A stretch of 64,000 bases of DNA from a virus. Of this stretch, positions 8,352-12,584 are shown piece after piece (the first letter of the stretch is position 1; every line of letters starts with the position of its first letter). The stretch covers positions 67,938 through 131,937 of IMG/VR virus record IMGVR_UViG_3300045988_114508; one strand, given 5' to 3'. The notes under the pieces are model-generated. The model searched no databases, was not told where the DNA came from, and saw only the letters and a program-made list of their open reading frames with translations. The position numbers and the translations under genes were made by a program.

Positions 8352-8394
8352 TTTCAGAAACAATGAACAACGAGATCCCACCTCTGGTTGTTTG

Positions 8395-9126
8395 ATGTTG
8401 AAAGATATTTTTGGCTCATTAGGGTTTGTCATAGTGGGATCTGACATTCTCTTTTGGGCCTATTTTTTTATTATGGATAATACTTGTATTCCTTTTGTGT
8501 TAATAAACGACAGAAAAATGATTGACGCAAAACATGTTCATAAATTGTTAGAATGTAAGTATGATTTTAAACATTGGATTAAGGATGTAATATCATCTTT
8601 TAATTTTAAGGATGGAATAGATTATATATCATATAGATATGATAATAATGGAGAACAAATAATAGATAATAATAGTCATGTATTTAGGCATGACTATTAT
8701 TTATTCCCCAAATCGATTCTGTGTATCATCTATATGAAGTGTGATAGATCTTTATTTAAAGATTTTATTTATGATATATTTGATTGTTGTAATATTAAAA
8801 ATGACGATCGGGTATTAGATATAATACATAGATCTATCGATAGGTATAATAAAAAATGTATAAAATATTTTACATATATAATAAGAAATAATAATAATGG
8901 TTTTTATAAAATAGGTAAAAGCTCTGATGTAAAAAGAAGGCTATCTGGGTTGTCTATTGTAGAAGATAACTTAACATTAATAGCTTATGTGGATAAAGAT
9001 ATAGAGAGCGAGCTTCATGCAAGATTTGATATCAAAGGGATATACAGAGAATGGTTCAACTTATCAGATTGCGATTTGAATGATATAATTGATAAATATA
9101 AATTCAAGTTGTGTGACATGGCTTGA
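8395..9126 (+). CDS. T5orf172 / GIY-YIG-like (MUG113-type) domain protein with hydrophobic N-terminus
   Basis: C-terminal FYKIGKSSDVKRRLSGL ... ELHARFDIKGIYREWFNL matches the T5orf172/GIY-YIG-like signature (YKIG.T.....R...L ... lH..f....EWF); N-terminal hydrophobic segment; AT-rich, Ile/Asn/Lys-heavy composition typical of a cargo gene. Confidence 0.45.
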   Translation: MLKDIFGSLGFVIVGSDILFWAYFFIMDNTCIPFVLINDRKMIDAKHVHKLLECKYDFKHWIKDVISSFNFKDGIDYISYRYDNNGEQIIDNNSHVFRHDYYLFPKSILCIIYMKCDRSLFKDFIYDIFDCCNIKNDDRVLDIIHRSIDRYNKKCIKYFTYIIRNNNNGFYKIGKSSDVKRRLSGLSIVEDNLTLIAYVDKDIESELHARFDIKGIYREWFNLSDCDLNDIIDKYKFKLCDMA

Positions 9127-11344: not shown

Positions 11345-12001
11345 TTGAAGGAATTAAGCATTTTTTTTAAACATGATGATGCTACGAGGGTAATGGAACA
11401 CGTAAAGTCCGTGTTAGAGGCATCAGTAGACTACCACTACCCGAATCATCCTGAACCTGAAGCAGAACCTGGAGACATGGGAGAGGTTTCTGATGGATAC
11501 CATACTTTCAATGAATTGTATCGGTACCGCATGTTGTATAACGCCGCCTTCTTTAATCTATTAGCCAGAAACGGACAGGTTGAAGTTTGCAAATCAAGGA
11601 GACACAGCGATGGAGAAAAATGCTTCGGTTCTGATGATTGGTTTATTGTGATGGCGATCCTACCTACCGGTCAGGTATCTAATCACTATGAAAGCAAATA
11701 CTGGGATTTGTTTGATGTTCCTGAAAGAGAAACCGCTTTCGAATACGATGGCCATACACCAAATGAAGCTGCCGACAGACTTAAAAAGTATCTCAAACTG
11801 CCTCGTCGTGGCATGACATTCGAACAGGCTTTAGAACGGCTTAAATTAGGTCGTAAGATAAAAAGAATTGATTGGGGTAAAAAGTATATCTGTATGTTTG
11901 ACGTAAATATATTGATGGTAGATACAGGTCAAAAAGTAGCATCAAATTGGAATCCAACCGAACATGATATTATGTCTAATGATTGGGAGATTGCAGGATG
12001 A
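11345..12001 (+). CDS. two-domain protein with C-terminal DUF2829 (Tad2-like) domain; N-terminus possibly extended from 11270 across a T8 run
   Basis: C-terminal MTFEQALERLKLGRKIKRIDWGKKYICMF resembles the DUF2829 N-terminal signature (M.F.eAlealK.Gkkv.R.gW.gk); ORF 11270-11368 (MELKDSVRVMTKEEFESAINEDIKFVEGIKHFF*) becomes in-frame with this ORF if the T8 run at 11359-11366 were T7. Confidence 0.45.
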   Translation: MKELSIFFKHDDATRVMEHVKSVLEASVDYHYPNHPEPEAEPGDMGEVSDGYHTFNELYRYRMLYNAAFFNLLARNGQVEVCKSRRHSDGEKCFGSDDWFIVMAILPTGQVSNHYESKYWDLFDVPERETAFEYDGHTPNEAADRLKKYLKLPRRGMTFEQALERLKLGRKIKRIDWGKKYICMFDVNILMVDTGQKVASNWNPTEHDIMSNDWEIAG

Positions 12002-12204
12002 GTTTGTTTGTTTGTTCAAAATGTGGCTGTATAGATAATACAGCCACATCATATTATTGGGCTCTTATAAGACCTTGTAAGAATCGTATTTACGATAAGT
12101 CGCTAAAGGGATATGAAGGCAAGCCTCTTTGTTCTGAATGTGCCGCTATTGAATATAGTAAGGGGGGGGGGAGAAGTGGTAGTTCCTGGAACGTGGCATG
12201 GTAA
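11998..12204 (+). CDS. Zn-ribbon protein (CSKCGC...CSEC) carrying an internal G10 homopolymer
   Basis: ATGA overlap with the upstream stop; four Cys in two CxxC pairs; G10 tract at 12165-12174; removing one G gives a longer, more protein-like C-terminus (…VVPGTWHGKFKKGMAY). Confidence 0.4.
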   Translation: MSLFVCSKCGCIDNTATSYYWALIRPCKNRIYDKSLKGYEGKPLCSECAAIEYSKGGGRSGSSWNVAW

Positions 12205-12278: not shown

Positions 12279-12584
12279 ATGTGTGATAAGGAAATTGTTG
12301 TATGCGCAGCTATATGGGTTCAAGATCACAAGAACAAGCCTCACGGTCCAGTAAATATACCATCTGGAACCGTATTTTGTGGATTGAGACACTGTTCCAT
12401 AATATCGCAACTTGCGGCATACGGAATAGCCCATAAAAACCGCAGTGTTCAAGGATTTTTGACAAGCAAGAATCGGTTTCTAACAAGAGAGGAGGCATCT
12501 GCTCTTGTTAAGAGCAATAATCAGGAAATGGTAGTAGATAGGAGTGCCATTAGAGAACAATTGTATTCAGAAGATCTATATTAA
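12279..12584 (+). CDS. hypothetical protein (101 aa)
   Basis: ORF in a co-oriented small-gene array. Confidence 0.4.
   Translation: MCDKEIVVCAAIWVQDHKNKPHGPVNIPSGTVFCGLRHCSIISQLAAYGIAHKNRSVQGFLTSKNRFLTREEASALVKSNNQEMVVDRSAIREQLYSEDLY

Follow-up and report, generated by a model that had tools for sequence, protein, structure and literature searches.

A 64,000-nucleotide (nt) stretch of viral DNA (the window; positions 67,938 to 131,937 of IMG/VR record IMGVR_UViG_3300045988_114508) carries on its plus strand a gene whose 218-residue product, as called, runs from a short helical N-terminus through a WDGH domain (PF25311) to a C-terminal Tad2-like domain (DUF2829, PF11195). An original prediction, made from the letters alone, had flagged the 3' end of this open reading frame (ORF), matched its C-terminal residues to DUF2829 and proposed a fusion with a second domain in an anti-defence protein aimed at Thoeris signals. 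Searching the protein with Pfam hmmscan revealed two domains, each above its curated cut-off, bearing out both the family assignment and the fusion. PF11195 scored 43.6 bits over residues 157-216 (cut-off 25; E 4.5e-11), covering profile positions 1-72 of 73, and the second domain is WDGH, at 125.6 bits against a cut-off of 27. We found 2489 homologues of the protein, with the PF25311 and PF11195 architecture present in most of the best 120; its PHROGs matches are all to families without an assigned function. Phage csAssE-Sib (OR575929.1), a 151-kb member of the Caudoviricetes from the human gut, shares 94% identity with the window, and its homologue carries the annotation 'protein of unknown function (DUF2829)'. 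Literature searches returned nothing relevant on csAssE-Sib, and the papers that mention DUF2829 are silent on the WDGH-Tad2 architecture.

We predicted the structure of the protein as a single chain with AlphaFold2 from a 40-sequence alignment. The predicted local distance difference test (pLDDT) score averaged 86 (WDGH about 95, Tad2 part about 91); the predicted template modelling score (pTM) of 0.56 leaves the orientation of the two domains uncertain. The C-terminal part shows the N-terminal helix, antiparallel β-sheet and short C-terminal helix of the Tad2 fold. A Foldseek search of the PDB returned solely Tad2 structures at E below 1e-3, and comparison with SPO1 Tad2 (8smf) gave the same fold (E 6e-5, template modelling (TM) score 0.74 on the target). 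As only Tad2 structures matched, the whole 62-residue module is predicted to superpose on the Tad2 core. Together these results establish the C-terminal domain as a true, structurally minimal Tad2-family module. Its first codon, an ATG, serves as the start codon in the stand-alone 62-66-residue versions of related phages. Our preferred reading, held with middling confidence, is that the protein joins an autonomous signal-binding (sponge) Tad2 module, of uncertain ligand, to an enzyme-like WDGH module.

Table 1. Features of the WDGH-Tad2 gene and its 5' end, in window coordinates.
Feature	Position	Strand	Remarks
Upstream ORF, 33 codons	11269..11370	+	MELKDSVRVMTKEEFESAINEDIKFVEGIKHFF*; -1 frame relative to main ORF
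Main ORF, 218 residues as called	11345..12001	+	TTG start; WDGH and Tad2-like domains; stop 11999-12001
T8 homopolymer splitting the gene	11361..11368	+	T7 in phage csAssE-Sib (DNA alignment)
WDGH domain (PF25311), residues 46-148	11480..11788	+	Pfam E 1e-36
Divergent cassette, the Tad2-like domain	11760..12020	+	Sliding DNA identity, per-domain identities, dN/dS
Minimal Tad2-like domain, residues 157-218	11813..11998	+	Helix α1 (MTFEQALERLKLG), 5-stranded antiparallel sheet, short C-terminal helix
W177-G178-K179	11873..11881	+	Site of canonical W-N-G loop (SPO1 W25-N26; HgmTad2 W21-N22-G23)
β2-β3 turn, F185-D186-V187-N188	11897..11908	+	24-41-residue insertion of SPO1/HgmTad2 absent
W202-N-P-T205-E-H207-D208	11948..11968	+	Equivalent of SPO1 W73..S76..T78-D79

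An exchanged Tad2 module and its WDGH partner

Comparison of the window with two related loci (L004 and L005) revealed DNA identity of 95-100% over WDGH, falling to 65-73% over the approximately 260 bp of the Tad2 cassette and returning to 98% in the next gene. Per-domain comparison distinguishes at least five cassette types, 37-100% identical to that of the window, joined to WDGH domains with identities of 95% or more. We calculated nonsynonymous (dN) and synonymous (dS) divergence between the window and L004 by the Nei-Gojobori method. WDGH gave dN 0.008 and dS 0.256 (dN/dS about 0.03) and the Tad2 cassette dN 0.268 and dS 1.08 (dN/dS 0.25); both modules are under purifying selection. The cassette is an old, diverged allele introduced by recombination. 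A diversity-generating retroelement was rejected as the source of the variation, as the alleles show indels, wholesale replacement and high dS.

A search with the Tad2 module alone recovered stand-alone ORFs of 62-66 residues, at least 90% identical to the module fused in the window and starting at the same Met, among them the minimal Tad2-like genes P0268 and P0270 of this lineage and those of four sister genomes. In two of these genomes (L046 and L047) a 1-nt deletion turns WDGH and Tad2 into separate genes overlapping at ATGA; in a third (L048) an unrelated 212-residue gene stands in place of WDGH, and in the fourth (L049) the entire WDGH gene is deleted, with the Tad2 ORF kept in both. WDGH-only forms also occur in the lineage (P0049 and P0090). 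Retained whether WDGH has been frameshifted, lost or exchanged for another gene, the minimal Tad2 module appears to be an autonomous, selected unit, which argues against a mere regulatory tail of WDGH; among near-identical phages it behaves as a swappable cassette. The same insertion-less core forms a stand-alone 60-residue gene product in Klebsiella phage vB_KpnM_KpS110 (A0A2K9VAK2; Foldseek TM 0.91 on the target). We found no experimental study of stand-alone minimal Tad2-like proteins in the literature searched. On the sister contig carrying L048 (ERZ28579655 scaffold_68), an IS605 OrfB/Cas12f-like TnpB gene (L048 2394-3201) has been inserted immediately 3' of the Tad2 and T4_Y16D genes.

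The WDGH partner is deeply conserved. Among 147 family representatives 22 residues are invariant, and 17 (D50, G51, H53, F55, E57, L58, Y59, R62, S84, H87, D89, G90, G109, H114, D135, G136 and H137) remain so when distant members from Salmonella, Listeria, Bacillus, Streptococcus and Nocardia phages are included; the window protein carries every invariant column of both family alignments. From the invariant His and Asp pattern, with four His (H53, H87, H114 and H137) and three Asp (D50, D89 and D135), we infer that WDGH is enzyme-like, probably metal-binding or catalytic. A zinc site on C82 and C93 was rejected, as these cysteines are not conserved across the family. No relative of WDGH was found in the PDB by fold (Foldseek) or by profile (best E 0.48 against PDB sequences), and searching the literature for 'WDGH' and 'PF25311' found nothing relevant.

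WDGH is also widespread. A phmmer search of 1.84 billion cluster representatives returned 3736 clusters at E up to 1e-3, the best 150 of which comprise proteins of 140-638 residues. We located the domain in genomes of many bacterial phyla and in 198 sequenced phages; it occurs in phages of Bacillota, Actinomycetota, Pseudomonadota and Bacteroidota, among them P22-like phages and Listeria Pecentumvirus (Herelleviridae). Among the 147 representatives a Tad2-like partner occurs in four and Sequestin (PF21825) in one; most partner regions have no Pfam match. Five relatives (P0111, P0114, P0103, P0109 and P0117) combine WDGH, PF21825 and a Tad2-like domain. Two others (P0045 and P0092) fuse Bro-N to WDGH, and many long WDGH proteins among the representatives (P0140, P0155, P0168, P0217, P0221 and P0228) consist of repeated unannotated modules (for example '...KIRKEII..WIAWLEKQGE', 'EPKFKVGDWV...' and 'ATKEQRDFLFQKMKEAGYEWD'), giving them the look of polyvalent modular phage proteins. 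Nocardia phage NTR1 Orf92 carries WDGH only, and Nocardia L015, considered as a full-length WDGH-Tad2 protein, was rejected as a 571-residue coiled-coil protein with WDGH only. Lockin and Acb5, two families in 10.1101/2025.07.12.664507, were rejected as WDGH kin, being set apart by their descriptions.

Stand-alone WDGH genes are found inside head-morphogenesis clusters. In Salmonella phage ST104, ORF54 (L002 2315-2875) lies between coat gp5 and gp4, as in P22-like phages, and in Streptococcus phage Javan199 the gene (L045 2423-2791) lies in the head module between portal-proximal genes and the scaffold gene. In Listeria phage LP-125 and Bacillus phage PBC2, WDGH is found in clusters of small genes. 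The head-cluster placement is unexplained for a putative counter-defence domain.

An alternative that we consider unlikely is that the Tad2-like domain is not a sponge and instead serves as an oligomerisation or ligand-sensing appendage of WDGH, whose activity, possibly non-immune, would be the real function of the protein. Consistent with this alternative are the far stronger conservation of WDGH, its 17-22 invariant residues with their His and Asp, its occurrence with many partners across thousands of clusters, and the nature of sponge folds as oligomerisation modules. Against it, genomes that have lost WDGH, or carry another gene in its place, still keep an intact Tad2 module that has a start codon of its own, and WDGH occurs without Tad2 in P0049, P0090 and 143 of the 147 representatives. 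Each module is thus found without the other, and the two do not need each other. An autonomous Tad2 module, with a binding function of its own, remains the reading that we prefer.

The putative ligand pocket and the missing insertion

We mapped published pocket contacts onto phmmer alignments of the window domain to 8sme and 8kbi. The gcADPR (glycocyclic ADP-ribose) contacts of SPO1 Tad2 are W25, N26, I63, T65, D67, H71, W73, S76, T78 and D79 (10.1101/2023.05.01.538930), and those of HgmTad2 are W21, N22, G23, W87, S90, T92 and D93, with binding lost in a W21A/N22A double mutant (10.1101/2023.11.15.567273). Four SPO1 contacts are kept, W25, T65, W73 and D79 corresponding to W177, T194, W202 and D208 of the window protein, and two are conservatively changed (I63 to V192 and S76 to T205). 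The remaining positions differ: N26 is G178, D67 is Q196, H71 is S200 and T78 (T92 of HgmTad2), a Thr in contact with the adenine, is H207, and G23 of HgmTad2 is K179. Two lysines (K179 and K180) follow W177. Across 40 homologues W177 and D208 are invariant and W202 is nearly so, and with these three residues the window domain retains the aromatic and acidic centre of the gcADPR pocket.

The second departure from solved Tad2 proteins lies between strands β2 and β3, a span of four residues in the window domain versus 24 in SPO1 Tad2 and 41 in HgmTad2. This insertion holds helix α2, part of the V-shaped dimer interface, in SPO1 Tad2 and the cGG/cGAMP pocket in HgmTad2 (insertion limits from 10.1101/2023.11.15.567273); in SptTad2, too, it provides a cyclic-dinucleotide pocket. 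Long-insert members of the same WDGH-Tad2 family retain W-N-G-K-G and S/T-D, and the window form is therefore a reduced, derived version. The β2-β3 loop, site of the insertion domain in other Tad2 proteins, is an indel hotspot; a 12-nt in-frame indel (IVES) in the turn, at 11897-11908, separates the window from csAssE-Sib.

These differences can be placed against three characterised proteins. SPO1 Tad2 (Gp34.65; PDB 8SME/8SMF/8SMG), the founding anti-Thoeris sponge, shares PF11195 and the arrangement of helix α1, β-sheet and C-terminal helix with the window domain; it is a stand-alone protein of 89 residues, whereas the window domain has 62, lacks equivalents of SPO1 residues 36-59 (helix α2) and is fused to WDGH. 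The Bacteroides-phage protein HgmTad2 (AcrIIA7; PDB 8KBI-8KBM) has one pocket for gcADPR and another for cyclic dinucleotides; the window domain lacks its whole 32-72 insertion, where the cGG/cGAMP pocket lies, and its N22 and G23. ModTad2 (PDB 9EIB), a sponge for His-ADPR and for cyclic UMP and CMP (cUMP/cCMP), is 27% identical to the window domain and carries an insertion; its cUMP site is at a second protomer interface.

We regard it as distinctly unlikely that the protein is a canonical anti-Thoeris Tad2, a homotetramer sequestering 1''-3'/1''-2' gcADPR like SPO1 Tad2 and thereby blocking type I Thoeris. Family and fold are the same, equivalents of W25, W73, D79, T65 and S76 (as Thr) are kept, and helix α1 is near the canonical sequence (MTFEQALERLKLG versus MTFGQALESLKRG in HgmTad2). 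Against these stand the changes of N26/N22 to Gly178, of G23 to Lys and of T78/T92 to His207, the absence of the insertion with helix α2, and the retention of W-N-G and S/T-D by long-insert relatives, which marks the window form as a derived departure from the canonical pocket. The gcADPR specificity that had been proposed for the domain is thus not supported. For the sponge module that we favour, an altered specificity is plausible since Tad2 members bind many different signals; ligands of the family comprise gcADPR, His-ADPR, N7-cADPR (cADPR, cyclic ADP-ribose), cyclic dinucleotides and cUMP/cCMP (sources including 10.1101/2023.11.15.567273).

The split reading frame and neighbouring genes

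The gene is split upstream of both domains. The 33-codon upstream ORF, which ends in the T8 run, is the contiguous N-terminus of the same protein in full-length homologues (such as P0031 and P0001) of 247-254 residues that start MELKD...KHFFKHDD. T8 and an intact 33-residue upstream ORF also occur in six further independent metagenome assemblies (L004-L009) with a different sequence background. As it is present in independent assemblies, the T8 run is a genuine polymorphism and not an error of the window, and sequencing error was rejected as its source. The T7 protein (...KHFFKHDD...) would be restored exactly if the ribosome slipped by +1 at TTT-TTT-TAA or if the transcript lost one U. Alternatively, the called TTG (11345) or 11393, the first in-frame ATG of the 218-residue ORF, could serve as the start codon, keeping both domains. 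The T8 site could thus be one of recoding or phase-variable expression.

That the gene is a decaying pseudogene, its domains relics inactivated by the T8 frameshift, is very unlikely. In its favour, the frame is split relative to T7, a neighbouring ORF of the window also has indels, and the lineage is rich in variants that are frameshifted, truncated or deleted. Against it, both domains lie 3' of the frameshift within an intact 218-codon ORF, dN/dS between T8 genomes is low in both (about 0.03 for WDGH and 0.25 for the Tad2 part), at least seven independent assemblies on two sequence backgrounds share the T8 run and the intact ORF before it, and protein is obtainable from the in-frame ATG or by recoding.

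The gene lies in a cluster of small unannotated ORFs flanked by two giant 'structural protein' genes. The next ORF, small and Cys-rich (11983-12204), has a G10 run at 12162-12171 in place of the GGGAGACGAAG of seven out of seven relatives examined; together with a second 1-nt insertion at about 12213, this run truncates the ORF, which is 91 residues long in relatives (phrog_11861). The G10 change was found only in the window and may be a poly-G sequencing or assembly artefact. Two genes downstream of the WDGH-Tad2 gene, a 101-residue ORF (12279-12584, plus strand) matches phrog_839 and is labelled PF26092 (T4_Y16D) on sister contigs; this T4_Y16D-type ORF is linked to the Tad2 module in every context seen. 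Another shuffled modular protein of the same accessory island, encoded at 8392-9126 on the plus strand, fuses an AntA antirepressor N-domain to a T5orf172/MUG113 (GIY-YIG-like) domain.

On its minus strand the window holds replication and nucleotide-metabolism genes. Between about 22000 and 64000, one minus-strand ORF has a MazZ-like match (E 8.6e-26) to the dATP/dGTP diphosphohydrolase N-terminal domain, PF18909, and the same region encodes a C5 DNA methylase, PNK3P and an SPFH/flotillin protein; together these may hint at modified-nucleotide metabolism. PADLOC defence-component hidden Markov models (HMMs) gave no matches at E up to 1 and NCBIfam named families none at E up to 0.01. Sequestin (PF21825) matched neither the WDGH-Tad2 protein nor any of the 64 other window ORFs, and no tRNAs that might hint at the host were found in the window.

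Candidate functions and significance

In the mechanism that we propose, the C-terminal 62 residues would act as a small-molecule binding, or sponge, unit in their own right. By analogy with solved Tad2 proteins, the module would oligomerise through helix α1, and a host immune signal derived from a nucleotide or from ADP-ribose would sit between Trp177, Trp202 and Asp208 of two protomers. Given the lost Asn, the change of Thr to His, the two lysines after Trp177 and the missing insertion, this signal would probably not be canonical 1''-3' gcADPR; the second, cyclic-dinucleotide pocket is absent. WDGH, extremely conserved, would be a module of its own, probably with a metal-binding or catalytic role; in this lineage it is variously fused to the Tad2 module, merely adjacent to it or absent.

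Several observations weigh against this proposal. Gly178 takes the place of the Asn (SPO1 N26 and HgmTad2 N22) that contacts the diphosphate in the solved complexes of both proteins, and three further contacts have changed, T78 to His, D67 to Gln and H71 to Ser. The tetramer may not form, since helix α2 of the SPO1 V-dimer interface falls in the missing insertion. No other sponge family was detected in the 64 other window ORFs scanned. For WDGH the argument from fusion is weak, the domain standing mostly without Tad2 and sometimes within head-gene clusters.

An anti-defence role for the window protein is plausible. For the Tad2 module, cassette exchange, stand-alone retention and the Sequestin-bearing relatives fit the counter-defence part of the original prediction; its extension to the second domain fares less well, a Tad2-like domain being found in so few WDGH proteins. 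Sequestin (PF21825), whose fusion to Tad2 and Acb4 led to its discovery, has been shown by experiment to be a 3'cADPR sponge, and in the sponge-sponge fusions Acb4-Tad2 (Pasteurella phage Pm86) and Sequestin-Tad2 (10.1101/2025.07.12.664507) Tad2 is one of several modules, as in the window protein. The window protein differs in having no Sequestin or Acb4 domain and in a partner that looks enzyme-like rather than sponge-like. The WDGH-Sequestin-Tad2 relatives may serve as a precedent for such fusions and offer the sole functional lead on WDGH.

Extending the logic that uncovered Sequestin, fusion to a sponge suggests a bolder and rather doubtful possibility, that WDGH is an unrecognised, very widespread phage counter-defence family, most likely one of small metal-dependent enzymes whose substrate is an immune signal derived from a nucleotide. 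On that view the window protein, like its WDGH-Sequestin-Tad2 relatives, would be a multi-pronged inhibitor of immune signalling, and the Asn-less Tad2 cassette would bind a signal new to the Tad2 family.

Few phage sponge families are as widespread as Tad2, and new immune signals are still being found as ligands of its members. Here an Asn-less core without the insertion is exchanged as a cassette among gut phages that are otherwise identical, and persists even where its partner is deleted; it provides a compact test case that could reveal how sponges evolve their specificity and how small a functional Tad2 unit can be. WDGH, with its thousands of clusters, enzyme-like invariant His and Asp residues and no structural relative found, is potentially the bigger prize, and its fusion to two known sponge families provides a concrete, testable hypothesis for its role.
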